The notes: generated from the letters alone by a model not told the origin. DNA of 64,000 nt from Gammaproteobacteria bacterium (GCA_965221455.1 OZ244890.1:415623-479622), one strand, 5' to 3'. Counted from the first letter of the stretch, positions 4,350 through 60,943 are shown. A program made the numbers and translations.

Positions 4350-4437
4350 AATTAATCATCCACAAGAGAGCCTCTAATCTTATCTTCCGTTGTTTCGCAT
4401 TTTAATGGAATAAGCTACGTTATTAGGGCACCTGATT

Positions 4438-6762: not shown

Positions 6763-6805
6763 AGTTTACCTGTACTTAACTTACTGCACTATTCCCGGGA
6801 AATAT

Positions 6806-10049: not shown

Positions 10050-10306
10050 TTTTTTGCATTCACATCCTGCAACATCCGGATATCAAGAGCCTGTTCTGCC
10101 ACCATCTTCTTCAACTCGCTGTTTTCCTTCTCCAAGCCCTTCAGACGTCTGGCTTGTGAGATATCCATCCCCCCATACTTGTTACGCCAGCGATAAAAAC
10201 TCTGCTCCGTAATATTGTGTTTGCGGCACACATCACGAGTATTCCTTGACTGCTCCGCTTCATGCAGAATCCGAATAATCTGTTCTTCAGTAAATCGTTT
10301 CTTCAT
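10043..10306 (-). CDS. IS3-family transposase OrfA (HTH)
   Basis: The 87-aa ORF (MKKRFTEEQIIRILHEAEQ...) has the HTH and leucine-zipper-like region typical of IS3 OrfA. It ends ...NAKKW, overlapping orfB. Confidence 0.8.
   Translation of the reverse strand: MKKRFTEEQIIRILHEAEQSRNTRDVCRKHNITEQSFYRWRNKYGGMDISQARRLKGLEKENSELKKMVAEQALDIRMLQDVNAKKW
10049..10055 (-). promoter_or_regulatory. programmed -1 ribosomal frameshift site (A AAA AAA) in the orfA/orfB overlap
   Basis: On the minus strand the sequence reads gcA AAA AAA tgg tag in the orfA frame. A -1 slip gives ...KKMVAPSDKAH, which is the orfB N-terminus. Confidence 0.55.
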
Positions 10307-10620
10307 TGGTTACTCCTTCGTGTTGGAGAAACCCTAACATAATCTCTGGTGCAATTATCGCAGGGCGATCCAAATGTGTCCGTCATGGTTGCTATTTAGC
10401 AAAAATTCGACTTTTATCCATGGGATAACCTTCGGTATCCGATGTCGCTAACAACAAATGTATGTAACAACCATTATGTGTTCTGTTCCAGCGCAATACA
10501 CCATGCGATCACCAAAAGACATTCCAGTAATTCAACTATCCGCCGCCTCGCAATCTCGAGACCCATATCATTTGCATGCTCCATCTATCGACTATATAAC
10601 ATATTAACTCTTGCACATAT

Positions 10621-11718
10621 TTATGAAATATGTCGTCTGGCAAGATAGTCGCGAGTATGCATCTGTTCAAGACGACTAATGGTTCTGAGAAATGGTTTGG
10701 ACAGGCGCTTCCCGATGTAAAGTTTTGACGGTCGCTCTTCTGCAGTCACAATTAATTTAACATGCCGATCATAAAATTCATCGACCAAGTTTATAAATCG
10801 TTTAGCCTTATCATTCGCCATTTCATCCATGACCGGGATCCCGGAAATAAGAACGGTTTGAAATGATCTGGCGATTTCCATGTAGTCCGCAGGGCCTCTT
10901 GGACCGTCACATACGGCATCAAAATCAAACCACACGACACCATCGGCAAGACGTACAGTTTCTATCGTCCGTCCTTCAATCTCAATAGGCATGCCTTGCG
11001 TTGTCTCACTCGGTGCAATGTGATCAAAATAAATTTCAAGCATTTCCATTGCTTCATCATCTGAGGGGGAATGGTAAATCTCCGCCTTATCCAGATAACT
11101 TAAACGGTAATCAACACCCGAATCCACATTCACGACTTCGGTATATTGCTTTATCAAGTCAATGACAGGTAGAAATCGTTCTCTTTGCAAACCATCCCGG
11201 TACAACTCATCCGGCGCCTCGTTGGAGGTTGCAACTAATACAACGCCTCTTTCAAACAATGCTTTAAGCAATCCACCCAGCAACATGGCATCTGTGACAT
11301 CAGAGACATGAAACTCATCAAAACACAAGACTGTAGTTTCCGAGGCGATGTTGTCCGCCACAACCTGTAACGGATCAGACACCTTTTTGAGCTCCCTTAG
11401 TCGCCTGTGCATCATCTGCATAAAACGATGAAAATGTATACGTTGCTTTTCTTTAAATGGCAGGCTTTCATAAAAAGAATCAATCAGGTAAGTCTTGCCG
11501 CGACCGACGCCTCCCCAAAAATATAATCCCCTGGTAAAGTTTGTCTTGTCTTTTTGAAATTTTTGTCTTATTTTTTCAAAAAAACCGTCACCATCAGTTC
11601 GTTCAGCCAATAGCTTGTCGAAAAGGCGTTGTGTCCATTGCACCGCAGTCTCCTGAGCTGCATCTGCATGAAAATCTTCGCGTAATAAATCTGCCTGGTA
11701 TTTTTGTAGAGGTGTCAT
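10621..11718 (-). CDS. zapE: ZapE/AFG1-family ATPase
   Basis: The 365-aa ORF has the Walker A motif GLYFWGGVGRGKTYLIDSF and AFG1-like architecture. Confidence 0.8.
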   Translation of the reverse strand: MTPLQKYQADLLREDFHADAAQETAVQWTQRLFDKLLAERTDGDGFFEKIRQKFQKDKTNFTRGLYFWGGVGRGKTYLIDSFYESLPFKEKQRIHFHRFMQMMHRRLRELKKVSDPLQVVADNIASETTVLCFDEFHVSDVTDAMLLGGLLKALFERGVVLVATSNEAPDELYRDGLQRERFLPVIDLIKQYTEVVNVDSGVDYRLSYLDKAEIYHSPSDDEAMEMLEIYFDHIAPSETTQGMPIEIEGRTIETVRLADGVVWFDFDAVCDGPRGPADYMEIARSFQTVLISGIPVMDEMANDKAKRFINLVDEFYDRHVKLIVTAEERPSKLYIGKRLSKPFLRTISRLEQMHTRDYLARRHIS

Positions 11719-45251: not shown

Positions 45252-45690
45252 GCTGTTGCACAGGCATTCTCCTTTCCAGTTTCCTTTGCGGGTGCGGTGA
45301 CTTTCCAGCTTCCTGTGCGTTTATGGCTTTGATCACTGCTTGTTGTCCGGTTCATGGCATACAAATGCAAGATCACTTTCACACGTTCTGCATAGCATTC
45401 GCACACCACCTGCAGCAAATCCATGATGTGTCCTCGTTGTAACCGCAGTCTCCAACGCTGTGCCATCATCATTAGTGCACCCATCGCACTTATATATTTA
45501 TGGGTATGCGTACAGCCGTTTGTGTAGTGAGTGAATCGCCCCTGATTTTGTAGACAGCAACGGTTCAGTCTATATGAGTAAAGGAGGTGTGCATGAATAA
45601 CAAAATCTATAAAGAATTTTCCGCACCAAAAGCGCTCCCCCTGCCAGGGGGAGTCCTCCGCAGGGGGTGGGGGCATATGAGTAAATCATC

Positions 45691-45894
45691 TGAACATCGT
45701 CATTCCCGCGAAAAATATGTCCTCGCAGAAGTTGTGTATTTTTTTGCGTCTTATAGATTCCCGCTTGCGCGGGAATGACGGGGTAGTGGTGCAGGAAGCG
45801 CGGAGCTTGAAAAGCAACCACCCCACCCCTGCGGGGCACCCCTCCTTGACAAGGAGGGGAGTGAGTTAGCCGACAAAGTTGAGTGACAGTAAAA
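45691..45894. repeat. 204-bp direct repeat, copy 1 (contains internal 13-bp inverted repeat cgtcattcccgcg...cgcgggaatgacg and the palindrome cccctccttgacaaggagggg)
   Basis: It is about 95% identical to 46010-46213. Confidence 0.85.
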
Positions 45895-45924
45895 TCGTCA
45901 TTCCCGCGAAAGCGGGGATCCAGA
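45895..45924. repeat. short palindromic element, variant A (tcgtcATTCCCgcgaaagcGGGgATccag)
   Basis: It is a member of the family cgtcatt-stem-aaa-stem'-aatccag. It has the same 5' half as the long inverted repeat inside the 204-bp units. Confidence 0.6.
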
Positions 45925-45940
45925 AAAACGAAGGCCTGGT

Positions 45941-45995
45941 GCCTGCCTTACGCTTTCCTGAGTTTAGTAGTGCACATGGGTGGAAAGAAAAGCCG
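45941..45995. repeat. about 55-bp repeat, copy 1 (gcctgccttacgctttcctgagtttagtagtgcacatgggtggaaagaaaagcc)
   Basis: A second copy at 47412-47477 is about 85% identical. The two copies bracket the degraded IS. Confidence 0.55.
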
Positions 45996-46009
45996 CTTAA
46001 TAAAATGAC

Positions 46010-46213
46010 TGAACATCGTCATTCCCGCGAAAAATATGTCCTCGCAGAAGTTGTGTATTTTTTTGCGTCTTATAGATTCCCGCTTGCGCGGGAATGACGG
46101 GGTAGTGGTGCAGAAAGCGCGGAGCTTGAAAAACAACCACCCCGCCCCTGCGGGGCACCCCTCCTTGACAAGGAGGGGAGTTAAGTAGCTGGCAAAGTTG
46201 AGTGACAGTAAAA
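46010..46213. repeat. 204-bp direct repeat, copy 2
   Basis: It is about 95% identical to 45691-45894, with a few point differences (g/a at three sites and the tail gtgagttagccgac versus gttaagtagctggc). Confidence 0.85.
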
Positions 46214-46500
46214 GCATTTCCCGCCCTAAAAGCTCTCCCCCTGCCAAGGGGGAGTGTAGTGGTCTAATAAATCCGTACCAGGTGATAGGTGATGAAATCA
46301 CATACTCATGGAGGTACGGCTCATGACAAAAGAACGAAAACACTTTACACCTGAGTTTAAACAAGATGCTGCCTTGTCTGGTAGTAGACCAGGACTACAG
46401 CATCAAAGAAGCCTGTCCAGTTGAGCAATTAAGCACGCACTATCGTCAAAGTGACGGCGATGATTGTCAGTAGCCAGCAGGGCTTATCGCAACAGTCACC

Positions 46501-46529
46501 TCGTCATTCCTGCGGAAGCAGGAATCCAG
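46501..46529. repeat. short palindromic element, variant B (tcgtcATTCCTGCggaaGCAGGAATccag)
   Basis: The flanks match variant A, but the stem has compensatory changes (cccgcg/cggg becomes cctgcg/cagg). Confidence 0.6.
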
Positions 46530-46701
46530 GTGCTGATTGCAACTCGTCTGAATTGCTTCGCTAAAGCTCTCCCCCTGCCAAGGGGGAGGGGGTTGCAGGG
46601 GGGAGGGAATGACGACTTACAACATCACCACAAACAATACAGACATTACCGCAACCAGCTTCCAGCATTCCATGTGACCGCCTGAAAGCATCAACCCCTG
46701 C

Positions 46702-46731
46702 CGTCATTGCGAGCAAAGCGAAGCAATCCAG
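46702..46731. repeat. short palindromic element, variant C (cgtcATTGCGAGCaaaGCgAAGCAATccag)
   Basis: The flanks are the same and the stem sequence is a third version. A reverse-orientation copy lies at 46894-46924. Confidence 0.55.
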
Positions 46732-46892
46732 TAAACTTTAAAGATAAGTCAGGATACCTTGAAATATTTGAAGATATGCAAAATGCCATTGCCAGAGAAA
46801 AATAAATTAAAGCTGACTCCCGCAAAAAGAAACCTGCCCTGATTGAAAAACACAATCCGGAATGGAACAATTTATATGAAGATATTGTTTAA

Positions 46893-47345
<453 letters not shown>

Positions 47346-47411
47346 TGAAAACAACCTATCGACTGGTACGGAAATACCGGACCACTTTAAGTACCCCGCA
47401 GGGGGGAGGGG

Positions 47412-47477
47412 GTTGTTAGTGCCTGTGCCCTGCGCTTTCCCGAGTTTAGCCATGCACATGGGTGGCAAGAAAAGCCG
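47412..47477. repeat. about 55-bp repeat, copy 2
   Basis: The sequence gcctgtgccctgcgctttcccgagtttagccatgcacatgggtggcaagaaaagcc is preceded by a gggggagggggttg motif that is also present at 46584. Confidence 0.55.
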
Positions 47478-47510
47478 GTGCAGTGAGCGTCCATGCTGTC
47501 CATGCAGCCA

Positions 47511-50500
47511 CTACTGCAAGAGTGCCTCGATATTCGTCCTGACCGCATTGAACGATGGATTGCCCGGAATGGTATCAAGCAGGCCCACCGCATCACGAAT
47601 ACCAAACAGGTAGCGACCCAGCAAGAGTCCGTCACTCTGGTTGGGATCACCGCCGCTGCCATCCACATCAAGACGACCGCTGGCGAAAGCCCCCGCAATA
47701 TTCGCCGTGACCGCACTGGCCGAGGGACTCCCGGGAATCGTATCAAGCAAGCCCGCCGCATCACGAATACCAAACAGGTAGCGGCCCAGCAAGAGTCCGT
47801 CACTCTGGTTAGGATCACCACCGCTGCCATCGACATCAAGACTTACCGCCGCTATCTCCGTCACCGTCACGGTCACGGTGGCCGCCGTGACGGTACGATA
47901 GGTGGTGTCGGTACTGGTCACCGTATGCGTGAGTCGCACGGTCTCGTCGTCTGTATCAGCGTCTTCCACTCCCGTCACGGTGATGGTTTTGGCGGTATTC
48001 CAGTCGGTGGTGCCAAACATCAGTGAGGTGGGACTCACCGTCACAGCAGCGGCATTGGAATGGGTCACGCTAATCGTCACTGCTTCCGTCGGTGGGGTAT
48101 TCAAGCGCAGCGTATACATGCCAGTCCCGCCACGTTCATGGACTGTCAGCGTCGTGGAACTCACGAACACGCCCGGGCCGTCGTTATCATTCAAGGTCAC
48201 AGCCACGGAGTCTATCGTCACGGCAGCCCCATTGTAGCCAGGGTCCGTACTTGTCGCTGTATGCGTGAGTTGCACGGTCTCGTGGTCTGTATCCGTGTCC
48301 TCAACACTACTCACCGTCACCGTCCGGGCACTGTTCCAGTTGTCTGTGGTAAACGTCAGTGAGGTGGCACTGAGGGTCACTGCAGTGGCATCGGGATTGG
48401 TCACGGTCAGCGTTACCGGCCCTGTCGGCCGGCTGCTCAGCATCAGGGTATAGCTGGTGCTGTCACCCCCTTCGGTGACATTCAGCGCGGTCGGCGACAC
48501 CCGCACACCCGCTACCGCCACCGGGTCGGAGGTCAGGCTATCGCCTCCCGCATTCGGATAACTCGCCATCACGCGCAACCACGTGCCTATCTGTGATTGG
48601 TCTGATGCAATCGTGTACGTGGCGGTATTATTGGTCCCCGGTGCGGCGGTAAACGGTCCCGCCGAGGCGGTCGCTGTCTGCCATTCATGGGTAATGGTGC
48701 CGACATCGGTAGTCGGTGAGGCGTCCGCATCGGTGACCGCGCCCGCTGTCAGCGTGCCGCCTGCTCTGGCAATGCCGGTGATGGGTCCGATGGCACCGCG
48801 ACGGTCAACCTGTACGCTATTGGAGAACAGGGTGTCGTTGAAATCCCCGCCCTGGGTCACCTGCACCCGCAGCCAGTGAGCATGGTCCGCCGCTTGCACC
48901 GTGTAGGTCGCGCTGGTGCCGTTCGTGCTGATATCTGTTGCGTTGCTACAGTCTTGAGTGGTACAGCGTTGCCATTGATGGGCGTTGATATTGACGGTCA
49001 ACGTGGGATGGCTCAGCGCACCGGCGGTCAAGATATCATCGACCCTGGCCGGGGTGTTGGGGGTACTGTCCTGGATGGCACCTAATGTCGCGGGCACCGC
49101 ATAAATATAGTTGTCGGTGGCACTCAGTTCACCGATGACTTGCCTGGTGATGGCTGCGACACTCGCTCCGATATTGCACAGCGGCGAGTTGGCTTGTGCG
49201 GTTTGTTCGGTGTTGGTCGTGGTCCCCGAGCGCACTCTTAAATCACCGCTGGCGGTACATGAACTGTCCAATAAGCGCACCCTGTTGCTGCCGGATGGTC
49301 GGTAAAACACGATTCCCGGTCCCGGGATAGCGGTCCATGAGAGGTTCGGACGGGACAGGTTGGACTTCAGGACTATATTGGTAGGGCCTGTCACGAACAG
49401 TGTTCCGCTATTCGGGGTCTCTCGCCCAGTTGTGATGAATCGAGGGGTTGTAAACGTGACTGTGCCGCCAGTGGTATCAATGTCCGTTAATTGCAGCCGA
49501 CCATCGCTGTTATTGCGGGTGAGTACCACGCTTGTGATGTCATCACTACCGTAGTTTGTCGCATCGGTATGCCCGGCCGGGCCGTTGACGAGATAGTTAT
49601 TCCAGAAGGTCGCACTCGGGCGGGCCTCGGTTTGCCCGTGGTTGGTGATGTCGGTGCCGTAGGCATTGGCACAATGGCCGCCCGTCCCGGCATTACAGGT
49701 GCGTGTCTGGTTCTTGTCGGTGATATTGCCCGCACTCCAGGCGCCCCAGCCGTCGTTGTAGTTTAGAATACCCACTGCCGTAGCCACAGACTGCTTGGTG
49801 ATGTCGTAAGGGGTGGATTGACACAGGGTACGCAGAGCCTGAGAATCTGATATGTTGGGGGTCACGCCGCCTGAGCTGCGTACCCTTGCGTCCCCGGTTC
49901 TACAATGAATCTCCACTATGTTGTCTACCCCAGGGAGAAATATCCGTCCCGGTCCCGGAATAGCGGCGAAGCCCCCGGTAAACGGGTTGTGCCAGTCGTT
50001 GTCGCCCGCATTCCAGGCGGCGAGGAAGTTGGCGAAGGCCGGGAACGCCCCGAGTAGGGTGGTTCGGAAAGGGAACGACAAGTTGAGGGGCCCTGACTGC
50101 CGGTCATACCACACCTTCAGCGTGGTCGGGCTGATAATCTCCGACATGCCTATCTGAGTCCACCCGCCGGTCGGAATCCCGGAATTCGGGTATAGGACCG
50201 GATTGGTGCCTTCCGGGCAGGGGGTGTTCGGGCCGGGAGTGCCGACGACGTTGACACTGCACGTCCGCCGGGTCGTCAGCGTCTCATTATTGATTGTCCC
50301 GGTGTAGGTGTACGATGCCGTATCCGGTACCGGTACGTCTGCGGACATCGGGGCATTGAACGCGGTATTTAGACTGGCTGCGGCAATCTTGTTGGCGTTG
50401 TATGAGTTGGTTATCTCTAGCGGGGTCGAGCAAAAGTTGGTGTTGCCTTCCAGCGTGTCCATCATCCCCGTCTTTATCAGGCTGGTGCCGGAGGTGGCGG

Positions 50501-51092
50501 GAGTGACAAAGGCAAGTCCGCTGGTACTGTTTCTTTGGCAGCGTACCTCGAATGCCTCCCCGTCCCGGTCATAGACGGTGGACGTGACATCCAATAGCGG
50601 ATTGAGCACCCGCCGAGCCACGGCAACATCAAAGCTGACACCTGTCGCAGTAGCTATGCACAATTCGTTTACGACATTGCTCATAGTATTGCCAACTCCG
50701 CTACCTGTACGGGAGGTGTTAGATGATATTAAGCATGTTCGGATGCCCGAAAGGACCGACTGGTCGGTCACGCCACTCGCGAAAGGACCACCACTGTGAT
50801 TTGTATGGACGTGGCGCCGAAGCACAAACCACGGCACGCTGACCCGATTCGCGTTGGGGTTCCCTGCCACGGTGGTGGCAAAAGTGGTGGTGCCGTCACC
50901 ATCCTCGGAGGTGGTGGTGACGGCGGGATCGCCGCCCAGATTATACTCGTAGCCGTCACCGCCCCCATCCGGGATGACGTAAAAGTCGACCAACCCGCGC
51001 GCATGGAAACTGTCCGAAAGTGGCGCCTGCGCCCGTGCCGCCGGGCTTGCCCATGCCGTCATCAGGGCAACAACGACCATAACCGCCGTCAT
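47511..51092 (-). CDS. large secreted Thr/Gly/Asn-rich repeat protein with C-terminal tandem dockerin-like Ca-binding repeats
   Basis: The likely start is at 51092 (MTAVMVVVALMTAWASPAARAQA, a signal peptide with an AxA cleavage site); the ORF finder gives 51263. The body has tandem roughly 95-aa beta-sandwich-like repeats (..LTFTTDNWNSARTVTVSSVEDTDTDHETVQLTHTATSTD..). The C-terminus has two nearly identical roughly 55-aa repeats (LDVDGSGGDPNQSDGLLLGRYLFGIRDA.GLLDTIPG). The GC content of this gene is far higher than the flanks. Confidence 0.7.
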   Translation of the reverse strand: MTAVMVVVALMTAWASPAARAQAPLSDSFHARGLVDFYVIPDGGGDGYEYNLGGDPAVTTTSEDGDGTTTFATTVAGNPNANRVSVPWFVLRRHVHTNHSGGPFASGVTDQSVLSGIRTCLISSNTSRTGSGVGNTMSNVVNELCIATATGVSFDVAVARRVLNPLLDVTSTVYDRDGEAFEVRCQRNSTSGLAFVTPATSGTSLIKTGMMDTLEGNTNFCSTPLEITNSYNANKIAAASLNTAFNAPMSADVPVPDTASYTYTGTINNETLTTRRTCSVNVVGTPGPNTPCPEGTNPVLYPNSGIPTGGWTQIGMSEIISPTTLKVWYDRQSGPLNLSFPFRTTLLGAFPAFANFLAAWNAGDNDWHNPFTGGFAAIPGPGRIFLPGVDNIVEIHCRTGDARVRSSGGVTPNISDSQALRTLCQSTPYDITKQSVATAVGILNYNDGWGAWSAGNITDKNQTRTCNAGTGGHCANAYGTDITNHGQTEARPSATFWNNYLVNGPAGHTDATNYGSDDITSVVLTRNNSDGRLQLTDIDTTGGTVTFTTPRFITTGRETPNSGTLFVTGPTNIVLKSNLSRPNLSWTAIPGPGIVFYRPSGSNRVRLLDSSCTASGDLRVRSGTTTNTEQTAQANSPLCNIGASVAAITRQVIGELSATDNYIYAVPATLGAIQDSTPNTPARVDDILTAGALSHPTLTVNINAHQWQRCTTQDCSNATDISTNGTSATYTVQAADHAHWLRVQVTQGGDFNDTLFSNSVQVDRRGAIGPITGIARAGGTLTAGAVTDADASPTTDVGTITHEWQTATASAGPFTAAPGTNNTATYTIASDQSQIGTWLRVMASYPNAGGDSLTSDPVAVAGVRVSPTALNVTEGGDSTSYTLMLSSRPTGPVTLTVTNPDATAVTLSATSLTFTTDNWNSARTVTVSSVEDTDTDHETVQLTHTATSTDPGYNGAAVTIDSVAVTLNDNDGPGVFVSSTTLTVHERGGTGMYTLRLNTPPTEAVTISVTHSNAAAVTVSPTSLMFGTTDWNTAKTITVTGVEDADTDDETVRLTHTVTSTDTTYRTVTAATVTVTVTEIAAVSLDVDGSGGDPNQSDGLLLGRYLFGIRDAAGLLDTIPGSPSASAVTANIAGAFASGRLDVDGSGGDPNQSDGLLLGRYLFGIRDAVGLLDTIPGNPSFNAVRTNIEALLQ

Positions 51093-51318
51093 GCCCGCGC
51101 AACGATAAACTCGTGCATCATCATGCAACCCGTGCAATAGCCCGTTCCGCCTCTCGCCGTCCACACAACCCACAATGCCACCCAACTGACACCTCAAACG
51201 CCGCAAAAGACCAAATTGCACACCCAACACATCCGCAGTAAGCTGCGCTTCGTATTCGGTCATAGCAATGTTGCGCCTGGTGGCGGCGCGGTCTGCGCCA
51301 GTGTTGCGGTCTACCGAG

Positions 51319-51358
51319 GGTGCTGTGGTGCTGTGGTGCTGTGGTGCTGTGGTGCTGG
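51319..51358. repeat. octanucleotide simple-sequence repeat (GGTGCTGT)x4 plus one imperfect unit
   Basis: The repeat is seen directly in the sequence. It lies about 230 nt upstream of the predicted start of the secreted repeat protein. Confidence 0.8.
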
Positions 51359-51718
51359 CACTTGCCGCGCAAGTGCCAGCGTGGTGGTGTGTTTACGTGA
51401 TTTTATCAACATATGTCAGTTCCTCTCCCGCGAGCTATTCAGATTGCCCACGTGCCCCTCTCACTCGGCACTGTACATTATCGTACTGACTGCCTCAACC
51501 TCAACCACTGTTCCATGGCAATCTGGCGCCGATGTTGCAGTGCTGCCACTTTTGGCGTAATACCAGCGTGATGGTCCGTTTACGTGGTTTTGTCGGTATC
51601 TGATGCTCTCTCCATGTCCAGTAGAGTGCAACGGGTTTTTGCCATCACTTCCCTTGCTTACCCGGTGTAACACATTCACCACGCTTGAAGTGGCTCGAAG
51701 ATCGGGGGCAGGTCACTC

Positions 51719-52171
51719 TCATTCAGCAATCAGTGCCTTCATCTTTGCCACGGAATCCTCATCCAATTCTTTCTCGACAGGTGTTCCCGCGGTTGCATCA
51801 CGAAATTCCTTCTCTGCAACCGCGTCTTCGCTCTCCGCTCTTGCTGCTTCGTTGGCATTCTTTTGTAGCGCCATTTTTAATTTCGCAACTTTATCTAACT
51901 TTTCTCTTGCCGCAAGCCGGTCTTTTTCAGCACTCATAAAAGCCTTTAGCCGTAATTTTATTCCTTGATCATCAGAAATTTGAATACCGGTATCATCAAC
52001 GACCTTGCCACGATTGAAGACAAATATTCGTGGTCCACCTTCAGCACCACGATACCAGGGAGGCGGCTTACCGGATAATTGTGTTGTCCCGGTTTCAGGA
52101 TCAATCCATTGATACATCTGTGCCTGAACAGATTGCATGAATACACACTGGCCAAGCAACAGAAAAAACAT
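51719..52171 (-). CDS. DUF4124-domain periplasmic protein
   Basis: A signal peptide (MFFLLLGQCVFMQSVQA) precedes the DUF4124 signature MYQWIDPETGTTQLSGKPPPWYR. The C-terminal region is charged and coiled-coil-like. Confidence 0.6.
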   Translation of the reverse strand: MFFLLLGQCVFMQSVQAQMYQWIDPETGTTQLSGKPPPWYRGAEGGPRIFVFNRGKVVDDTGIQISDDQGIKLRLKAFMSAEKDRLAAREKLDKVAKLKMALQKNANEAARAESEDAVAEKEFRDATAGTPVEKELDEDSVAKMKALIAE

Positions 52172-52411
52172 TAAGCAATCAATTAAGCGATAACAATGCA
52201 CTCTGTGATCCTCCATACGTACTGTCGGAATTATGGCATTTGATTAATCATCAAGTTCGACTCACTTGTCAGGCAGGGTGAACGGGAATTTCGGGAACGA
52301 TATCCGGAACATCACGATGTTGTCCAGGTTAACCATAACGGACAGATCAAACTGATTTGATCGACATGATACATTTTTAAATTGCAAAACCCTATCAGTG
52401 ATCCAGTGCAT

Positions 52412-55400
52412 TCAAATATTCAGCGCCTGTAATTTATTCTTGCTGAAAGCCTCTTGCAGAGACTCATATGTGACACATTCGTAATTATCCATGCGTGCTA
52501 TCAGTTGACCGTTCTGATCGATGAACTCAATAGTGGCCAGGACCCGGTTTTTTGAATGTCCAATGACATTGACATTGATCATGCAATCATCCTTTGGAAA
52601 GGTTTTTTGGAATTGTCTATATTCGCCAATTGCTGTGGGTAAAGAACCCACACCCGATACCTCGAAGCACCAGAGGATCATCAGTTGAAAACCACTATCC
52701 AATACCAGTGGATCGGCAAGCCATGAAGAGCGTATTGGTTTTACCATCCAGTTTGCGGGTGCGCTCGCGGTTTTAACCTGTGCCGAAATACCTTCAGCAC
52801 TACATGCGTCTATGGTGACGATCCCCTGTAACAGTGTGTCGTGGAACAGTCTGTTTGAAGAATAGATTTCGTTTGTCGCCTGCGAATATTCACCGTTAAT
52901 CGCTTGAGTACCCGGGGCTTCTTGCTGAATTTTATCTGTGGTTAAAATAATTTCTGCACGGGCATGTCGTACTTTACCGCTGCGTAACTCGACAAGGATG
53001 ATATTTCCGTCTTCATGTTTGCGCGGACTTCCGGCGAGAATATCAAGTTCAATCGTCTCGTCCATATCCAGAGTGATGCCTTTGAGGATACGGAGATTTC
53101 TAAAGCCGAGATAGTTCAGGCCGGGATTATTATGTATTGCACCATGGGCAAGCCATTCGCATATCATTGCCACAGGTAATACGGCTTGACTATTGATCAC
53201 ATGTGATTTCAGAAAATCATGATCCGCCACATTCAGGTTCCTTGTAAAGGACGCCTGCATATTGTCCACAGGAATTTCTTCTACATATCCCTTTGCATTG
53301 ATATTTTTCTCCGGGACTTCTGTGGCACCTGACACGACAACTTCAACAGGACCCTGGTGTGTGATCTCTTGCATGAGATAGTCAGCACCCGCTTTCAGGT
53401 CAATGATACCAATCCCTTCATTTTTAAAGATTTTCTTTAATGCGGGGGTGACCATGCCGCCGTCCCACGGCCCCCAATTAACACTGATGATCCGACAATC
53501 TTTACGCAAGGTTGCCTGTTGTTGTGCGATTTTATTCAAGGCTTCATTGGCAACCGCATAATCACACTGGCCTTTTCTGCCAAAACGTCCTGTCGTTGAT
53601 GAGAACAGGACCATGATCTTTAATTGATCATTTTCAGTTGCTGCAAGTAAGGAATCCAGTCCTTTAACTTTAGTCGCATAAACTTCTGAAAATTGTTCTC
53701 TGGTTTTATCTGCGATGAGTTTGTCCGCCAATACGCCTGCACCATGAACAAAACCGGCAATATGACCAAGGGTTTTCCTGGCTTCGTCAATTGCCGCGAT
53801 AACTCCAGTTTTATCTTGTACATCGACTGCGCGATACATTACTTTTACACCAGTCGCTGCAATGCGTTGTAGATTGTTGCGGATTTCTCTAGCAGTGAGT
53901 ATTTTGTTACAGGCTGCATTTAATTCTTTCGGCTTTATTGCCGTGGGCGTGGCACTTTTGCTGTCTTGCGCAAGCAGTGCTTTTTTAATTTCAGCTTCTG
54001 TGCCGAGTTCCGCCAACCATGCAGCTTCCGGTTCAGGTTGCTCACTACGTCCCAGTAGTAACAAATTCGTTTGACAGGTTTCCGCCAATGCCAACGCAGT
54101 CCTGGCTGTAACGCCGCGTGCGCCGCCAGTCACGACAACAACATCCTGTGCATTCAGTGGTGCAGAAATTTTATTTCCATCAATCACCGCTTCGTTGAGG
54201 TCGAGTATGTAACGTTGATTATTCACGATCCCAACTTCCAATACGCCCTCTGACAAGCATTCATCAACGACATTATTCGCCAATTTCCTGATGTTATTGC
54301 TCATTTTAACATCAATGGCTTTGCATGAGACTCCCGGCCATTCTTTATCAGCTGTTTTAATCAGGCCTGCGATACCACCGGAAATCGGGCAAGTCTTGCC
54401 AACCCCGTTTAGTCCAAACCTGCCGCCCATTCGGGTGACGCTGGCGAGCAGCGCTGCCCCGGATTTTCCTGCCAGGCGTAATGACTCGCCGATGCGTTGA
54501 ACCAGCATAAAACTTTCCTGCATAAAGGTCTGTTCCGGAGTCTCGGGGGTCAAGATGATCAAGCCTGCCGGCGTTTCATCATATTCGCCGGGCACAGCAG
54601 CAAGCGATATCATCCTGGGCTTGAGACCTTTTACCTTGAGTGATTCACAAATCGCCTGAGTGAATACGGGAGTGTCTGTCGTTACCCAAACAATCGCATT
54701 CTCTTGCAGAGATAGTTTTTCCTGTGCTTGTGTTAATGGCACTGAAGACAAAACTTGTCTATTAATTGTCGTCACGGCTTTTTGGTTCCCGGAACCCATT
54801 TCAGTTACATTTTCCCGGGATGTTATTGCATGCGTCGTTGCAGGTGAACTTGCCAGCATGTGATCAACAATTTGTTGCAGGGTTTGTAATGTCCCTAAAT
54901 CTTCAGGTTTTACTGCAGGTATTGCCGGAATATTTTCCTGCAGGGCAGATAAAATTTCCACGCGCTTGATTGAATCAATGCCAAGATCTGCTTCAAGATT
55001 CATATCCAGATTGAGCATATCCACCGGGTAACAGGTCTTGTCTGCAACCACCTCAAGTATGACTTCAGCCAGTTGTTCCCTATCTGCAGCGGCAGTTGCG
55101 GACGACATTGTTTGTGCAAACCTGCCGCCACTACCTGCGGCAAGGAAATCGACGATTTGTTGTAACGTTTGTAAATTAGCCAAATCTTCCGGACTGACCA
55201 TCGGCGCTTCCGGCAATCGCTCTTGCAGCGCTGATAAAATCTCCACGCGCTTGATCGAGTCTATACCTAAATCGGTATCCAGACTCATCTCCAGACTCAA
55301 CATATCCATGGGATAACCGGTTTTATCACTCACGACTTCCAGTAATACGTCGGCAAACAAGTCTTTATTTGGTATCGCATTTTTAGAACCCGGGACTGCA

Positions 55401-58400
55401 CCCGGAATAATCGCCGGTGCTGTCGTTACCACTTTTGGCGTGGCGGCGACAATGAATTCAACAATATTTTGCAAGAACTGGAATGTGCCCAACTCTTCCG
55501 GATTTACCGTTGGTGCGCTGGGTAACTTTTCCTGTAATGCAGATAAAATTTCCACGCGCTTGATTGAGTCGATACCCAGATCGGTATCCAGACTCATGTC
55601 CAGACTTAGCATTTCCAGCGGATAACCCGTCTTCTCTGCGACTACTTCCAGTAAAATGCTATGGACTTCTTCATCCGCATGAATGGTTTTTTCTGTTTCT
55701 ACAATTTCAATCGTGGGCTTGTCCTGTTCAATGAGCCGAGATGTCGCGGCAGGCACTCCGGGGGATAACTGCTCCGGCGATGCCGGTGCCTCTTGCATCT
55801 CTGGAGATCGTGTTGTGATTGGTTGTGCTTGTACTGAATCGAGACCTGATAACTCTTGTTGTTGTCGCAGAAATTGGGAAATCGTTAGCTGCGCTGTTTC
55901 CTGTCCCTGCAAATATTGCTGATGTAGTTTCGCAGTTTGTTCCTGCATCTTCTGCAGGGCAAGTATACTTTCACGGGTAGTCTCTAATGCGTTTTGTCTC
56001 TGCAGGCCTGTGGTTGTGACAGCAGGTGTTTTTTGTGTCGCAGTGGTACTGTTCGGAACCGGATTTTTCATTTTTGCGTCTGCTGACATTGGCTGTGGTA
56101 TCGGCGTTTGCGATATTGGCGTTTGGATTCGTGGTTTTATTTGTGGAGTTCTTGCCGGACGTTTTTCCACAGGCTTCATGTAGTTTGTGCCGGATAATGA
56201 CATTGTCATCGCCGGTTTTTTATCAACGGCGTTTTGATTTTCTTCGGCTGCTAACGAATGCAGATAACCTGCATCCCACTGCGATAGATCAATACCCTTA
56301 TCCAGCACTGCAAGGCCAGCGAGTAAATTGGCGAGATCAACTTGACCATGTCGTTTACCGGAAGAGTTATCCAGTGACAGGATTTGAAATTCATTCACAT
56401 CATTTTTATCGCTTATGATCGCTGTCACCAAACCGCTCAAACGACTCCCCGGACCAACTTCGACAAAAGTGCGGACGCCTGCGGCGACCATTTTCCCAAC
56501 TTGTTCAACAAACCTGACAGGATGCGCAAGTTGTCCTGCAAGTAGGCGTCTGATCTCATCTTGATTACCAGGGTATGCATCAGCCGTTGTATTCGCCAGC
56601 ACGGTCATCACACTTTTGTGCAATTCAATCCCCGCCAATGCCTCTGCAAAAGGACGTTCTGCATCGGCAACAAACTTACTGTGGAACGCTGCCGAGACAG
56701 GTAATTGTGTCACACGTAACTTGCGACGTTTACAAAGTTTGATGGCTTTTTCTATTTGGTCGGTGGCACCGGATAAAACAATTTGTTTGGGTGCATTATG
56801 GTTGGCAATCACCAAATCGAGTTTTTCTGCCTGAATCAAGGATTCAACAACGCCTGGCTCAGCCAGTACCGCCAGCATTGAACCTCGATCCCCTTCGCCT
56901 TCCGCCATTAGACGGCCGCGTAGCAGAGATAATTTATGTAATGCTGTTTCATCGAATACGCCCGCAGCACACAAGGCAACCAGTTCGCCGTAACTGTGAC
57001 CTGCGGCAATATCCGCCTTGAAACCAAAACTCTCAAGTATACGCAAACCAGACAAACTTACGGCACCAATCGCTGGTTGTGCATGATATGTGTGCCGCAG
57101 AGTCTCTTCCTGAGCTTGTCTTGCCGTATCGTTGAATACAGGAATCGGGTAGATGATATCAGTCAGTCGGGAACCGTGTTTGCTTTCGCCTTTACAGGCG
57201 TTGGCGTTACTCAGGATATTATTAAACTGTGGAAACTGGCAGGCTAAATCGCGCAGCATGCCGACATACTGTGCGCCTTGTCCCGGGAATAATAATCCTG
57301 TTTTGTGTTTGTGTGCACCGCAGGCATAGCTGGCGCCTACAGGTAATTGCCAGAACTTTTTCGATGGTTCTTCTGCCAGCATCTTACTGATATTTTTGAT
57401 CAGTAGTTGTAAATCTGTTTTATCTTTTTCCATGATAAGTATCAGTCGATGTTTTTTCTTCGCATCAAACTTTGCACACGTGCTTGCCGCCAGTGCTCGA
57501 TATGCAGACCATGATTGTTTATCGTCGATTGCATTTAGCCGTTCTGTCAACGCTGTTTGCGAATCCTCGCTCAAGGCAATGAGCAATACGCGACCGTCCC
57601 AATCCATTTCTGCATTATTATCTTCAGCCTCTTCAAGCACGCAGTGGAAATTACTGCCGCCAAAACCAAATGCACTCAATGCTGCACGTCGTCGATGTGA
57701 ATCACTGGAAACCCAGGGGCGTTTCACTGTGTTGATATAGATTGGTGCTTTCCCCGGTTCCAGGGGTATCAGTGGTTGATCGACCTTGAGCGTTGGTGGT
57801 AATACTCTATGCTTCAGCGCCATGATTGCCTTGATCATCCCGGCAACACCTGCCGCAGATTTGGTATGACCAATCATTGACTTCACCGAACCCACAGCAC
57901 ACCAGGTATCTTCTGCATTCGCTTTGCGGTAAACCTGATCAAGCGCGTTTACTTCAACCGCATCCCCGACAGCGGTGCCTGTGCCATGCGCTTCAACGAG
58001 TTCTATTGACTCAGGAGAAATACCGGCTTGTACGTAGGCATCTTCCAATGCTTTAATCTGGCCTGCGCTACTTGGTGCGTAAATGGCATTGCCACGACCG
58101 TCACTTGAAGTACCAATACCTTTAATCACGGCATAAACTTGATCGCCATCCCGTTCAGCATCCGCAAGACGTTTTAATATAACCACTCCCATACCTTCAC
58201 CGAGGACAGTACCATCGCCATTCAATGCAAATGGACGGCTATCGCCTGTCGGTGAAAGCGCAGGTGTTTTACTAAAACACATATACATAAAAATATCGTT
58301 GAAAGTGTCCAGACCGCCAGCAATGACCATATCAGAACGACCGGCAGCGAGTTCCAGTGATGCCAGATGTATCGCACCTAATGAGCTTGCACACGCGGCA

Positions 58401-59077
58401 TCCACTACGCAATTGGTGCCACCGAGATCAAATCTATTCGCAATACGGCCCGCAGCGACATTGCCTAACAAACCGGGAAACGAATTTTCTTGCCAGGGAA
58501 CATAACTATCGGAAATTCTCTGCACAACATCTTCCGCAGTTTCCGGATCAACACCGGCTTTCGCTAAAGCGTCGCGCCAGACCGGATGTCCCAGTCTCGC
58601 CCCAAGCGGTATTACCAATTCGAGTGTGCCGGTCACTCCCAGTATGACGCTGGTACGATCACGGTCAAATTCTTTACCATCACCAACATCTCTGCCGGTG
58701 GCATAACCGGCATCAAGTAAAGCTTGTCTGGCAACTACCATACCGAGTAATTGTGTGGTGTCGGTGGCCTCAATATTATTCGGACTTATGCCGTACTGCA
58801 GTGGATTGAAATTTACCGGATCAATAAAACCACCACGTCGACAGTAAGTCATATCGGGAGTCTTTTGATTGGCATCAAAATAATCCTCAGGATTCCAGTG
58901 TGAATCGGGAATGTCTGTGATGGCATCAACTCCCTCTCGAACATTCGACCAATATTCACTGACATCACCTGCCTTCGGGAAAAGACAGCCGATACCAATG
59001 ACGGCTAATGGAGAGGCCTGATTCCTGTTTTCCTGTTTCTTTTCCATAGTCATTTGATCATGATAAATTTTGTTCAA
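52412..59077 (-). CDS. PfaA-like polyketide/PUFA-type synthase: KS-AT-ACPx3-KR-DH
   Basis: The 2221-aa protein has, in order: a KS N-terminus (AVIGIGCLFPKAGD, with the active Cys in a DAACASSLGA context), an AT domain (GHSYGE), three tandem ACPs (each LGIDSIKRVEILSALQE), a KR domain (VVVTGGARGVTA), and a C-terminal PKS-type DH domain (HDFLKSHVINSQAVLPVAMICEWL). Its start overlaps the enoyl reductase gene stop. An alternative start at 59053 (MTMEKK) removes the overlap. Confidence 0.85.
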   Translation of the reverse strand: MNKIYHDQMTMEKKQENRNQASPLAVIGIGCLFPKAGDVSEYWSNVREGVDAITDIPDSHWNPEDYFDANQKTPDMTYCRRGGFIDPVNFNPLQYGISPNNIEATDTTQLLGMVVARQALLDAGYATGRDVGDGKEFDRDRTSVILGVTGTLELVIPLGARLGHPVWRDALAKAGVDPETAEDVVQRISDSYVPWQENSFPGLLGNVAAGRIANRFDLGGTNCVVDAACASSLGAIHLASLELAAGRSDMVIAGGLDTFNDIFMYMCFSKTPALSPTGDSRPFALNGDGTVLGEGMGVVILKRLADAERDGDQVYAVIKGIGTSSDGRGNAIYAPSSAGQIKALEDAYVQAGISPESIELVEAHGTGTAVGDAVEVNALDQVYRKANAEDTWCAVGSVKSMIGHTKSAAGVAGMIKAIMALKHRVLPPTLKVDQPLIPLEPGKAPIYINTVKRPWVSSDSHRRRAALSAFGFGGSNFHCVLEEAEDNNAEMDWDGRVLLIALSEDSQTALTERLNAIDDKQSWSAYRALAASTCAKFDAKKKHRLILIMEKDKTDLQLLIKNISKMLAEEPSKKFWQLPVGASYACGAHKHKTGLLFPGQGAQYVGMLRDLACQFPQFNNILSNANACKGESKHGSRLTDIIYPIPVFNDTARQAQEETLRHTYHAQPAIGAVSLSGLRILESFGFKADIAAGHSYGELVALCAAGVFDETALHKLSLLRGRLMAEGEGDRGSMLAVLAEPGVVESLIQAEKLDLVIANHNAPKQIVLSGATDQIEKAIKLCKRRKLRVTQLPVSAAFHSKFVADAERPFAEALAGIELHKSVMTVLANTTADAYPGNQDEIRRLLAGQLAHPVRFVEQVGKMVAAGVRTFVEVGPGSRLSGLVTAIISDKNDVNEFQILSLDNSSGKRHGQVDLANLLAGLAVLDKGIDLSQWDAGYLHSLAAEENQNAVDKKPAMTMSLSGTNYMKPVEKRPARTPQIKPRIQTPISQTPIPQPMSADAKMKNPVPNSTTATQKTPAVTTTGLQRQNALETTRESILALQKMQEQTAKLHQQYLQGQETAQLTISQFLRQQQELSGLDSVQAQPITTRSPEMQEAPASPEQLSPGVPAATSRLIEQDKPTIEIVETEKTIHADEEVHSILLEVVAEKTGYPLEMLSLDMSLDTDLGIDSIKRVEILSALQEKLPSAPTVNPEELGTFQFLQNIVEFIVAATPKVVTTAPAIIPGAVPGSKNAIPNKDLFADVLLEVVSDKTGYPMDMLSLEMSLDTDLGIDSIKRVEILSALQERLPEAPMVSPEDLANLQTLQQIVDFLAAGSGGRFAQTMSSATAAADREQLAEVILEVVADKTCYPVDMLNLDMNLEADLGIDSIKRVEILSALQENIPAIPAVKPEDLGTLQTLQQIVDHMLASSPATTHAITSRENVTEMGSGNQKAVTTINRQVLSSVPLTQAQEKLSLQENAIVWVTTDTPVFTQAICESLKVKGLKPRMISLAAVPGEYDETPAGLIILTPETPEQTFMQESFMLVQRIGESLRLAGKSGAALLASVTRMGGRFGLNGVGKTCPISGGIAGLIKTADKEWPGVSCKAIDVKMSNNIRKLANNVVDECLSEGVLEVGIVNNQRYILDLNEAVIDGNKISAPLNAQDVVVVTGGARGVTARTALALAETCQTNLLLLGRSEQPEPEAAWLAELGTEAEIKKALLAQDSKSATPTAIKPKELNAACNKILTAREIRNNLQRIAATGVKVMYRAVDVQDKTGVIAAIDEARKTLGHIAGFVHGAGVLADKLIADKTREQFSEVYATKVKGLDSLLAATENDQLKIMVLFSSTTGRFGRKGQCDYAVANEALNKIAQQQATLRKDCRIISVNWGPWDGGMVTPALKKIFKNEGIGIIDLKAGADYLMQEITHQGPVEVVVSGATEVPEKNINAKGYVEEIPVDNMQASFTRNLNVADHDFLKSHVINSQAVLPVAMICEWLAHGAIHNNPGLNYLGFRNLRILKGITLDMDETIELDILAGSPRKHEDGNIILVELRSGKVRHARAEIILTTDKIQQEAPGTQAINGEYSQATNEIYSSNRLFHDTLLQGIVTIDACSAEGISAQVKTASAPANWMVKPIRSSWLADPLVLDSGFQLMILWCFEVSGVGSLPTAIGEYRQFQKTFPKDDCMINVNVIGHSKNRVLATIEFIDQNGQLIARMDNYECVTYESLQEAFSKNKLQALNI
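54860..55680. repeat. three tandem roughly 300-bp repeats encoding the ACP domains of the PfaA-like gene
   Basis: Nucleotide-level repeats (for example cgcgcttgattgagtc.atacc.agatc.gtatccagactcat) recur at about 54961, 55247 and 55557. Confidence 0.8.
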
Positions 59078-60734
59078 TCACATTGGTTTTGAGCGGTGTT
59101 ACACGAGTTAACTGGTCAGGGAGTTTTACACCCTGATTACGTAAAGTATTCGTACGTGTCACCACAGTCGCACCATAAAGAATATTCATGGCGACTGTAT
59201 CAACCGTTCTATTGGTCGGCTCTGCCAACCAGGAATCCTTGCTCCATTCATTGAATGCACCCATCGAGGGACCACACCAAACCTGGTAATCCACTTGTCT
59301 TGATTCTTCGCCTGAGTTGGCCCATCGTGACGAGAGTCCCAGGTACCAGCGGAAGATCAGTGCCATTTTATGTTTAGGGTCTTGATCGGCTTTAATAATT
59401 TGTTCCGGATCACGTTCATCGAAAAAATCTCGCGTCAGTTGCCAAATGTCTGTCAGGGGTGCCTTGAAAATTGTTCCTTCCAATGAGTTCCTTTCTTTTT
59501 CCGGAATAGCATCAATGGAATCGTGGGTCTGATAGAGTTCATAAAGTTTGTTACCACGCATGGCAAACATGGTGCCGCGTTTTAGGACTTGTAACTTCAC
59601 ACCCATTTCAAACATATCAACCGCAGGTGCCATTATGACATCGGCTTGTTGTGCGTCGGCCAACATTCTGCGCACGATGTCACTGCTACCTGATTCAACG
59701 CAGGCTTGATTGACCGTGCCGGTAACAATGTACGCAGCCCCCATCGAAAAAGCCGCCGCCGCAGATGCCGGCGTCGCGATACCGCCTGCAGCTCCGACTC
59801 TGAGTGGTTTAGCGTAATTGAATTCTTTTTGTAAACGATCACGCAGTGCCATCATGGTCGGTAATAACGTAATTGCAGGTCGGTTATCGGTATGCCCTCC
59901 GGAATCCGCTTCTACTGTAAGATCCTGTGCCATTGGTATTTGCGCAGCAAGCGATGCCTGTTCTTCCGTAATGTCTCCGGACGCAACCAATTGTAACAAC
60001 ATTTCTTCCGGCGGTGGGCTGAACCATTTGCTGGCAATTTCAACACGAGAGGCTTTGGCAATAATTTTGTTTGGGGTTTCTATATCGCCGGATGTGTTTC
60101 TGTGAATATCATGAACACGATAACGAACAGTGGGTAAAGTGAGTTTCATGTAGGCTGATGTTTCAATAAGCCGGATCCCATACTTCAGATACAGGGAAAC
60201 AACAGCGTCTTCGTGTCCCTTTTCATTAGGGGAAAAAATAAGGTTTAAACAATAAGGCTTTGGCGATACAGTTTCTGTGAGATATTGCACTGCTTTTTCA
60301 ATTTCACTGAGCGTCAAACCTGCCGCACCGAAAGAAGCCAATAACTTTGCATTTGCTGCTGCTTCAACGAGTTTGGTCGAGGCGATCCCGTTCGCCATGG
60401 AACCACACATATAGGGGAAACGTAGATGATGATCTTCACAAAAGCTGACATCACCCAATTGACGCGGTGAACTGGCAGGAGAAAATCCAGTTAATGACAG
60501 GCCGTCTGAATCAATTCGTCCGCCGATGTTTATTTGGCCTTGCTGGCTTACCATAAGCTGTTGGTTTTGATCTTGTAATACATAAATAGCCTGGCTCAAA
60601 TTACCAATAGCCTTGCGTATGTCTGTGTCTTGCTTGATAAGTGTTGAGGTATCGCCAAACCAATAACCCAACGCTGCATTTGTCCTGCTGATAGCCTTGT
60701 TTTTTGCCAGTGGTATTTGTGTTATTTGAGTCAT
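59058..60734 (-). CDS. PfaD-type enoyl reductase (FMN-dependent, 2-nitropropane dioxygenase/FabK-like TIM barrel)
   Basis: The conserved AAGGIATPASAAAAFSMGAAYIVTGTVNQACVESGSS segment is present. The start is taken at 60734 (MTQITQIPL), which has an RBS aggaa; the ORF finder gives 60788. Confidence 0.8.
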   Translation of the reverse strand: MTQITQIPLAKNKAISRTNAALGYWFGDTSTLIKQDTDIRKAIGNLSQAIYVLQDQNQQLMVSQQGQINIGGRIDSDGLSLTGFSPASSPRQLGDVSFCEDHHLRFPYMCGSMANGIASTKLVEAAANAKLLASFGAAGLTLSEIEKAVQYLTETVSPKPYCLNLIFSPNEKGHEDAVVSLYLKYGIRLIETSAYMKLTLPTVRYRVHDIHRNTSGDIETPNKIIAKASRVEIASKWFSPPPEEMLLQLVASGDITEEQASLAAQIPMAQDLTVEADSGGHTDNRPAITLLPTMMALRDRLQKEFNYAKPLRVGAAGGIATPASAAAAFSMGAAYIVTGTVNQACVESGSSDIVRRMLADAQQADVIMAPAVDMFEMGVKLQVLKRGTMFAMRGNKLYELYQTHDSIDAIPEKERNSLEGTIFKAPLTDIWQLTRDFFDERDPEQIIKADQDPKHKMALIFRWYLGLSSRWANSGEESRQVDYQVWCGPSMGAFNEWSKDSWLAEPTNRTVDTVAMNILYGATVVTRTNTLRNQGVKLPDQLTRVTPLKTNVIEQNLS

Positions 60735-60943
60735 CTTGATATTCCTGCGAAACTTAAATACATTCCTCCCCAAAACCGGATAAATCAAGGATCTGGTAAA
60801 GAAACCGGGTCGACCATTATATATGAATTTACCCTGGCAGAGGCGCTCTTCAGCAGTCTTAATCCGCAGGCGGAAACAAGTTCCATCCCAAAACTCCAGT
60901 GTAATGAGGATGTTATTTATTAGTTGTTGATTAATATAATAAG

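Follow-up and report, generated by a model that had tools for sequence, protein, structure and literature searches.

Positions 47400-51700 of a 64,000-nucleotide (nt) stretch of DNA from a Gammaproteobacteria bacterium (GCA_965221455.1 OZ244890.1:415623-479622; the whole stretch is referred to as the window) stand out by their high guanine-plus-cytosine (GC) content and hold a single minus-strand gene for a modular protein of 1193 amino acids (aa). This apparent island is a member of a GC-rich gene family whose copies are dispersed, and not a solitary insertion or an artefact of chimeric assembly. We propose, with a probability of about 0.6, that the family is lineage-specific, encodes surface proteins whose expression is probably phase-variable, and shares one Ca-dependent anchoring tail.

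A dispersed family of GC-rich genes

About 20 relatives of the encoded protein, at 62–89% identity, were found among 5.8 billion proteins, and all lie on one 2,504,188-bp contig, which also carries a protein 100% identical to the query open reading frame (ORF). At least 21 paralogs lie on this 2.5-Mb contig, summing to 29,550 aa or 88.6 kb, ~3.5% of its length. Family genes are also present on three metagenome contigs (L070, L071 and L072; ENA ERZ25072283), where the same jump to 0.57–0.65 GC occurs inside flanks of 0.42–0.49. The family gene of L070 is located after dnaX-ybaB-recR and that of L071 adjoins restriction and KAP-NTPase genes; the two host contexts are mutually unrelated. L072 carries two tandem family genes (1678-11176) in the same orientation, ~900 nt apart and with a short opposite-strand ORF between them. 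Family members can thus also form head-to-tail arrays, a configuration favouring unequal recombination. The possibility that L072 and L071 represent the same locus was rejected, as they are only 96% identical and their gene arrangement differs. At 6260-6480 of L071, ~650 nt upstream of its gene, there is a leader remnant of another family copy ('...ATGACCGAATGTGTCGCGCACGTTGCCGCAGACAGG...') with no gene after it, which suggests decay or deletion of a former copy.

Compositionally, 47400-51700 has a GC fraction of 0.587, compared with a mean of 0.436 (standard deviation 0.027, maximum 0.482) for all other 4.3-kb windows of the 64 kb, corresponding to z = 5.7. Windowed GC revealed no second stretch with a comparable rise within the 64-kb window. 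With 500-nt windows, values are 0.54–0.62 across ~47250-51750 and 0.35–0.48 in the flanks, and 100-nt windows place the edges of the step at ~47400 and ~51400-51750. GC at third codon positions (GC3) is 0.68 for the gene and 0.34–0.47 for nine neighbouring genes. When the same 1193-aa protein was recoded with host codon usage, a GC of 0.49 was obtained, against the actual 0.59. Based on the GC3 and recoding figures, the shift lies mostly at synonymous sites and is not an amino-acid effect alone; about one third of the excess is due to the Thr/Ala/Gly-rich composition of the protein. An earlier note on this DNA, made from the sequence, had described an abrupt GC change over ~4.3 kb, and the windowed GC and codon usage computed here confirm it (58.7% versus 43.6 ± 2.7%).

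The same note interpreted the region as a horizontally acquired single adhesin island. The foreign-looking composition is supported, and the notion of a lone island is discarded because of the paralogs on the contig and the GC step at the three further loci. The atypical composition is not confined to one locus, as a single recent transfer would have it. High GC is instead a family-wide property, offset from the host genome by ~15 GC points, and most likely stems from a gene acquired long ago from a high-GC donor and amplified afterwards.

Family architecture was tabulated for 31 family proteins and fragments, including cluster members and two further representatives, and follows the order [A]0-1 - B1-3 - C1 - C2 - D2-19 - E - E, behind a signal-like peptide that occupies residues 1-22 of the query (Table 1). 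In the optional module A, the first ~250 residues are hypervariable. Alignment of 25 copies of module B showed a near-invariant opening of ~67 residues (W-G-x-W-S...Q-T-R-T-C), four conserved cysteines, a hypervariable, indel-rich core at columns ~68-135 and a conserved C-terminal half. An exhaustive HMMER search of 1.84 billion representative proteins with modules A and B found only family members. Neither the whole protein nor its pieces gave a Pfam or NCBIfam match for modules A, B or E; only fn3_6 matched, on module D.

The first ~30 residues of module B read W-G-x-W-S-x-x-N-I-T-D-K-N-Q-T-R-T-C-N-A-G-x-G-x-x-C, which we take to be reminiscent of the WxxW...R-x-R-x-C pattern of thrombospondin type 1 repeats. 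Pfam TSP_1 had no match to module B, and the AlphaFold2 (AF2) model is unreliable in this module. Paralog P0165 carries a Spondin_N domain (E = 7e-40) as a passenger in the same frame and with the same E-E tail, a domain that accompanies thrombospondin type 1 repeats in F-spondin.

The C modules are of the '...GxTLTAGxVTDxD...YxWQ...' type. Weak Ig-type Pfam matches were found in P0165 for IG_AIR9 (E = 0.001) and SCAB-Ig (E = 0.086), on separate stretches of that protein, one of them in the C1 region. The D repeats carry the motif LTFTxxNWNxxQTVTV and number 2 to 19 per paralog. The tandem ~95-aa beta-sandwich-like repeats of the earlier note are real as repeats, and they form not one set but two distinct pairs, C1/C2 of ~98 aa and D1/D2 of ~110 aa.

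Module D is the sole module with relatives elsewhere, at 69 loci in diverse, mostly high-GC metagenome-assembled genomes (MAGs) with a median GC of 0.64. These relatives include Sandaracinaceae, Latescibacterota, Dehalococcoidia and gammaproteobacterium AqS3, and P0024 is annotated as Calx-beta domain-containing. A D-repeat profile found nothing significant among PDB sequences. In their stalk the family proteins resemble giant adhesins known from marine and from symbiotic bacteria, with Calx-beta-, cadherin- or fn3-like repeats, the D repeats (LTFTxxNWNxxQTVTV...TDND) being 30–49% identical to MAG repeats. Unlike those proteins, they end in E-E, which is carried by 0 of the 69 foreign loci, and modules A and B occur in none of them; co-transfer of the D repeats with E-E was rejected on this count. 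Many of the D-repeat relatives come from MAGs with sponge-suggestive names (AqS3, Poriferisodalis). Such names are hints of a host-associated habitat and not evidence for one.

Comparison of the query with 25 paralogs in sliding 60-aa windows revealed a mosaic with a steep conservation gradient. Residues 1-270 have at most 28–64% identity to any paralog, residues 271-445 have 80–93% identity and are closest to P0164, and the start of module B is closest to P0021. P0003 matches most of the remaining query at 97–100% identity, interrupted by patches for which P0017, P0006 or P0004 is the closest copy. Homogenisation is seen in the last D repeat and in E-E, where the median identity across essentially all copies is 93–97% (93–95% for E-E). 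Mosaic and gradient together are the pattern expected of recombination or gene conversion among copies, by which heads diversify while the tail evolves concertedly. The shared DNA unit exceeds the coding sequence, as it comprises an element at 51591-51717, the leader (51319-51445) and a 3' tail to ~47390, followed by a fragment of an IS3-family insertion sequence (IS).

The constant C-terminal tail

Of the 27 tabulated family proteins with a length of at least 867 aa, 24 have the E-E tail; P0019 and P0021 are named as exceptions. Tandem Repeats Finder (TRF) detected the two C-terminal repeats at 47530-47842 with a period of 168 nt (56 aa), 1.9 copies and 88% matches, and the DVDGSGGDPNQSDGLLLGRYLFG motif is present twice, in agreement with the two nearly identical ~55-aa repeats of the earlier note. 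Each repeat consists of a 13-residue loop followed by a predicted helix (H11-23 and H70-79). The whole module spans 110 aa, the loops are 56 residues apart, and the AF2 model of E-E has a mean confidence score (pLDDT) of 71 and five helices. It does not reproduce the compact three-helix fold of ~60-70 residues seen in solved dockerins.

A homology search identified a small set of distant tail relatives, 32–42% identical over most of the query tail. They have the same layout of two ~55-aa repeats, with the consensus LDVDGNGxxDALTDGLLLLRYLFG, and all are found at the C-termini of unrelated fragments, one of them after a subtilisin-like end. Four of the seven distant homologs scanned matched Pfam Dockerin_1 (best E = 7.5e-5), and two touched EF-hand models. 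A profile built from the distant homologs had as its best PDB match the Clostridium thermocellum Xyn10B dockerin (1ohz_B; E = 0.004). When the full-length protein was compared with PDB sequences, only two were touched, both Xyn10B dockerin, at a non-significant E of 0.15–0.23. The dockerin alignment is limited to the loop plus helix, ~22 residues, and requires the insertion of one residue in the loop. Common to E-E and type I dockerins (PF00404) are two tandem Asp-rich EF-hand-like loops, each followed by a helix (predicted in E-E), the D-x-L-L-x-R-Y-L-x-G signature and a C-terminal position on secreted modular proteins.

Together, these comparisons lead us to conclude that E-E is related to the dockerin/EF-hand loop-helix theme in a divergent, expanded form and is not a demonstrated Dockerin_1 member. 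The likeness to dockerins and EF-hands that had been noted earlier thus holds for the loop and helix, as seen through the homologs, and does not extend to a Dockerin_1 match of the query or to a fold match. Plausibly, E-E binds Ca and has a docking role. The Spondin_N passenger in P0165 and the occurrence of homologous tails on unrelated fragments suggest that E-E behaves as a targeting or anchoring module. The view that dockerin-like modules are unusual outside cellulolytic Firmicutes does not hold, as non-cellulosomal examples are known from all three domains of life and have been suggested to act as adhesins (Peer et al. 2009, as cited in PMC10066038). The earlier note had also named two outcomes that would count against its account, a GC not different from the surroundings and C-terminal repeats matching a non-Ca-binding family, and neither was obtained.

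Leader repeats, proposed mechanism and alternatives

As expected of a phase-variable locus, a perfect short tandem repeat lies just upstream of the gene for the putative surface protein. This simple sequence repeat (SSR), of 8 bp in the window, has counterparts at the same leader position in L070 (8 bp, 35.8 copies) and L071 (7 bp, 7.3 copies), both with 100% matches. Translated leaders of database entries imply 2, 4 and 5 copies of the 7-mer and ~18 and ~36 of the 8-mer. Repeat number differs between paralogs and related loci while the flanking leader is conserved, with 2, 4, 5 and 7 copies of the 7-mer and ~5, ~18 and ~36 of the 8-mer.

Immediately 5' of the tract is a hairpin, which a stem-loop scan places at 51362-51387. 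In L070 this hairpin is retained, one pair having changed from A-T to G-C in a compensatory manner. The promoter-like element further upstream has the L071 counterpart TTGACA ... TAGACT, and a promoter scan gives another candidate instead, TTGAGG-16-GATAAT at 51504-51477. In RNA folds predicted for two leaders, the C/A-rich repeat pairs with a G-rich stretch beside the start codon. The repeat tract may confer phase or graded variation of expression.

The nearest documented parallel is hmw1A of Haemophilus influenzae, which has a 7-bp repeat tract in its 5' untranslated region (5'-UTR); expression is inversely proportional to tract length, and the tract forms a hairpin with a G-rich arm (PMC12721329). 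HMW1/HMW2 and the present family are alike in being very large secreted adhesin-type proteins encoded in multiple copies with variable repeat number, and in the placement of a perfect tandem repeat of 7-8 bp downstream of a promoter-like element and ahead of the start codon. The pairing predicted here between repeat and G-rich stretch near the start codon likewise resembles the hmw 5'-UTR hairpin (PMC12721329). The family differs from HMW1/HMW2 in being unrelated by sequence, in lacking a two-partner-secretion partner nearby and in having at least 21 copies versus 2.

We envisage the family proteins as exported through Sec, with a variable head (A, B) placed on the Ig-like C1/C2 pair and on a stalk of 2-19 D repeats that ends in the constant E-E. 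The E-E tail would be a common Ca-dependent anchor or dock, attaching the proteins to one shared surface receptor or to one another, while the D stalk would set their reach and the heads would hold diverse binding specificities. Slippage of the 7- or 8-bp leader tract would alter its length and thereby modulate the expression of each copy independently, resulting in a switchable surface repertoire. Recombination among copies would shuffle modules and homogenise the tail. As for origin, at least the D-repeat region may have been transferred long ago from a high-GC lineage, after which IS-associated amplification and dispersal would have produced the family.

Variable surface families include Neisseria Opa, Mycoplasma Vlp/Vsa and Borrelia Vlp/Vsp. 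Shared with these are many paralogs, conserved export and anchor ends with hypervariable exposed regions, a mosaic structure indicating recombination and SSRs linked to each gene. The present proteins differ from them in being far larger (1000–3200 aa) and built of beta-sandwich repeats, and in having an anchor that is neither a lipobox nor a beta-barrel. They also belong to an uncultured marine gammaproteobacterium, no known pathogen, and lie ~15 GC points off their host.

Several observations weigh against the proposal of a phase-variable family with an anchoring tail. The variation in repeat number spans paralogs and related loci, not one locus within a population; look-ups of P0001, P0003, FolD and the neighbouring orf165 gave no second assembly of the locus. 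The leader folds are only marginally better than those of shuffled sequences (z = -1.85 and -2.5). A basic n-region is absent from the signal-like peptide, and it is uncertain which start codon the query uses. Pfam Dockerin_1 did not match the full protein (E <= 1) or the isolated 110-aa tail (E <= 10), and fold searches with the E-E model, whose pLDDT is moderate, matched no dockerin. Biased gene conversion as the cause of the high GC gains no specific support, since GC3 is high to an equal degree in divergent and homogenised modules. Lastly, we infer surface display, Ca-dependent docking to a common partner and expression tuning from sequence.

The non-canonical loops and the missing dockerin fold match weaken the docking reading and favour a rival account in which the proteins are released. 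These proteins would then be toxins or lectin-like factors binding particles or a host matrix, E-E would serve folding or stability as a Ca-dependent cap, or else competence for secretion, and the upstream repeats would be neutral sequence prone to slippage. The putative N-terminal export signal without a C-terminal transmembrane or sorting motif fits such exoproteins, as does the eukaryote-type Spondin_N passenger of P0165. We consider this rather unlikely, because a strictly conserved, homogenised tail in ~25 otherwise diversifying proteins better fits one common partner and because neutral repeats are improbable where perfect tracts of up to 36 units occupy the same leader position in many copies.

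A single recent horizontal-transfer island, with one adhesin and a genuine type I dockerin binding a cohesin scaffold as in cellulosomes, would explain the foreign-looking composition, the adjacent IS3 fragment, the D-repeat relatives mainly in high-GC lineages and the alignment of the loop-helix to the Xyn10B dockerin. It is very unlikely given that the composition is common to at least 21 paralogs on one contig, that other loci have the same GC step, and that the heads have diverged to 28–64% identity, which is not expected of a recent arrival. A genuine dockerin is opposed by the lack of a Dockerin_1 or fold match and by a length and spacing double the usual, and a cellulosome-like role by the Pfam and NCBIfam scans, which detected no catalytic module, carbohydrate-binding module (CBM) or cohesin within the protein. 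Chimeric joining of a gene from a co-occurring high-GC organism to low-GC host sequence during assembly or binning is hardly credible: the abrupt composition step, the metagenome-derived assembly and the D-repeat relatives in high-GC MAGs of similar projects would fit it, but the junction elements (127-nt element, leader, 3' tail and the IS3 and miniature inverted-repeat transposable element (MITE)-like repeats) recur in independent contigs, the IS3/MITE-like repeats at the junction are also present in low-GC sequence, different family members adjoin different low-GC host genes, and modules A and B have no homolog in other organisms among the 1.84e9 representatives.

Should a phase-variable family with a common anchoring tail be the correct reading, ~3.5% of the genome of a gammaproteobacterium related to the Thioglobus group would be a switchable repertoire of giant surface proteins, and the contingency-locus strategy, known mainly from human pathogens, would extend to environmental or symbiotic gammaproteobacteria. 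Modules A and B would be new domains, and the branch of two 55-aa dockerin/EF-hand repeats may define a non-cellulosomal docking system. The GC offset (GC3 0.68 versus ~0.4) throughout a diversified family raises the matter of how foreign composition persists. For annotation, the case teaches that what looks like a 'GC island' may belong to a repeat family with dispersed copies and not be a one-off transfer. A bolder version, unlikely as a whole, would be a 'plug-in surfaceome' in which ~25 GC-rich genes combine interchangeable hypervariable heads, and the eukaryote-like Spondin_N, with stalks of adjustable length and one homogenised, expanded dockerin-like Ca dock to a single receptor. Each gene would be dimmed or switched by pairing of its leader tract with the translation-initiation region, producing combinatorial adhesive or antigenic variation, possibly in association with a host, and the foreign composition would be actively maintained and not ameliorated.

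The gene, its flanks and the neighbourhood

Table 1. Features of the window gene, its modules and its surroundings (aa, amino acids; CDS, coding sequence)
Feature	Position	Strand	Basis or remark
CDS, 1193-aa family member	47511..51092	-	ORF list; 100% identical to P0001
Signal-peptide-like N-terminus MTAVMVVVALMTAWASPAARAQ, hydrophobic core then A-R-A|Q	51027..51092	-	Direct reading of the sequence
Module A, residues 23-445	49758..51026	-	Architecture table; optional head, only 4 family members
Module B, residues 446-665, 4 cysteines	49098..49757	-	Family-defining unit, 1-3 per paralog
Modules C1 + C2, residues 666-861, two ~98-aa Ig-like repeats	48510..49097	-	Architecture table
Modules D1 + D2, residues 862-1083, ~110-aa stalk repeats	47844..48509	-	Pfam fn3_6, E = 1.1e-7 (isolated)
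Modules E1 + E2, residues 1084-1193, tandem ~55-aa dockerin-like putative Ca-loop plus helix	47514..47843	-	Constant C-terminus
Perfect 8-bp SSR ACAGCACC (gene strand), 4.9 copies	51319..51357	-	TRF, 100% matches; 227-265 nt upstream of the start codon
Hairpin, 12-bp stem GCTGGCACTTGC-GCG-GCAAGTGCCAGC	51354..51380	-	Sequence; immediately 5' of the repeat tract
Promoter-like CTGACA, 18 nt, TAAACA	51390..51419	-	Aligned family leaders by eye; consensus match only
Element of 127 nt bordering the unit upstream	51591..51717	-	94% identical to L071 6136-6260
Conserved 3' non-coding tail of the family unit	47393..47510	-	Identity to L070 and L071
IS3-family transposase fragment + adjoining repeats, abuts the gene 3' end	46390..47392	+	NCBIfam transpos_IS3, E = 4e-35

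The ORF list bears out that one minus-strand gene of 1193 aa fills the island when the start is placed at MTAVMVVVALMTAWASPAARAQ, and a signal-peptide-like N-terminus, as claimed before, can be read directly from the sequence. Segments of the MTAVMVVVALMTAWASPAARAQ type are kept at the N-terminus of ~25 paralogs, and Sec export of the family proteins is putative. An alternative start, the first in-frame ATG at 51263, would extend the ORF to 47511..51263(-) and the protein to 1250 aa, the same as database entry P0001. The 57 codons between this ATG and the signal-like peptide (51093-51263) have homologs in the leader segments of several paralogs, which are in frame there and read 'MTEC.THVAADRF...'. 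As the starts picked by gene callers differ widely, the lengths given in databases for family members cannot be compared as far as the N-terminus is concerned.

Inspection of the ORF translation and the Pfam and NCBIfam scans found no C-terminal transmembrane or sorting motif. Giant adhesins of the repeats-in-toxin (RTX), type I-secreted class carry C-terminal GGxGxD repeats and no Sec signal. The query does not belong to them, as Pfam and NCBIfam gave no RTX-type family, none is visible in the translation, and a hydrophobic N-terminal segment is present.

On its 3' side the gene is followed by the IS3-family transposase fragment, whose ORF is 46899-47348, and on the other side PfaD/PfaA-type genes begin at 52412, as the earlier description of the flanks had it. 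The IS3 region 46390..47392 shares 95.6% identity with L071 11750-12792, and its match to the end of L070 is 99% over 110 nt; at least three family loci have the same fragment on their 3' side. Past the stop codon, identity continues down to 47445 for L070 and to 47390 for L071. A 52-nt repeat at 47426-47477, within the 3' tail, has a second copy at 45944-45995 (repeat family D5). A composite transposon was considered and rejected, as no inverted or direct repeats bracket the gene.

Dense short interspersed repeats fill 45600-46950. Among them are a 205-nt direct repeat (45690-45894 / 46009-46213, 96%), 30-31-nt inverted repeats with CGTCATTCCCGCG...CGGGAATGACG and 41-nt repeats ending CCCCCTGCCAGGGGG. 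Parts of this region are 93–99% identical to sequence 3' of the L071 gene, which indicates that these MITE-like elements travel with or target family 3' ends. The search for structured RNA in the flanks gave a single sub-threshold Rfam match, within this repeat graveyard.

Upstream, the 127-nt element begins directly past the stop codon of a small host gene (51719-52216), which lies between the GC-rich region and the PfaD/PfaA-type genes. The latter (52412-60788), which make up the PUFA-like locus of the earlier note, encode a 2221-aa multidomain synthase of PfaA-like type, whose translation contains three repeats in tandem that resemble acyl carrier protein (ACP), and after it an enoyl reductase of the PfaD family (E = 1e-186). 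At its start codon, the upstream gene overlaps the downstream one by 20 nt.

Further away, 19841-42022 contains two paralogous sets of glutamine-synthetase-like, glutamate-synthase-domain and amidotransferase genes, together with a sarcosine-oxidase alpha-family gene, DAO-family oxidoreductases and an ammonium transporter (Pfam/NCBIfam). We take this arrangement to resemble an N-methylglutamate/methylamine utilisation cluster. Overall, the neighbourhood is one of ordinary gammaproteobacterial metabolism, including folD, sarcosine-oxidase-like and glutamine-synthetase-like genes and the pfa cluster. CysI is 87–92% identical to MAG proteins and 82% identical to that of 'uncultured Candidatus Thioglobus sp.', the closest named relative.

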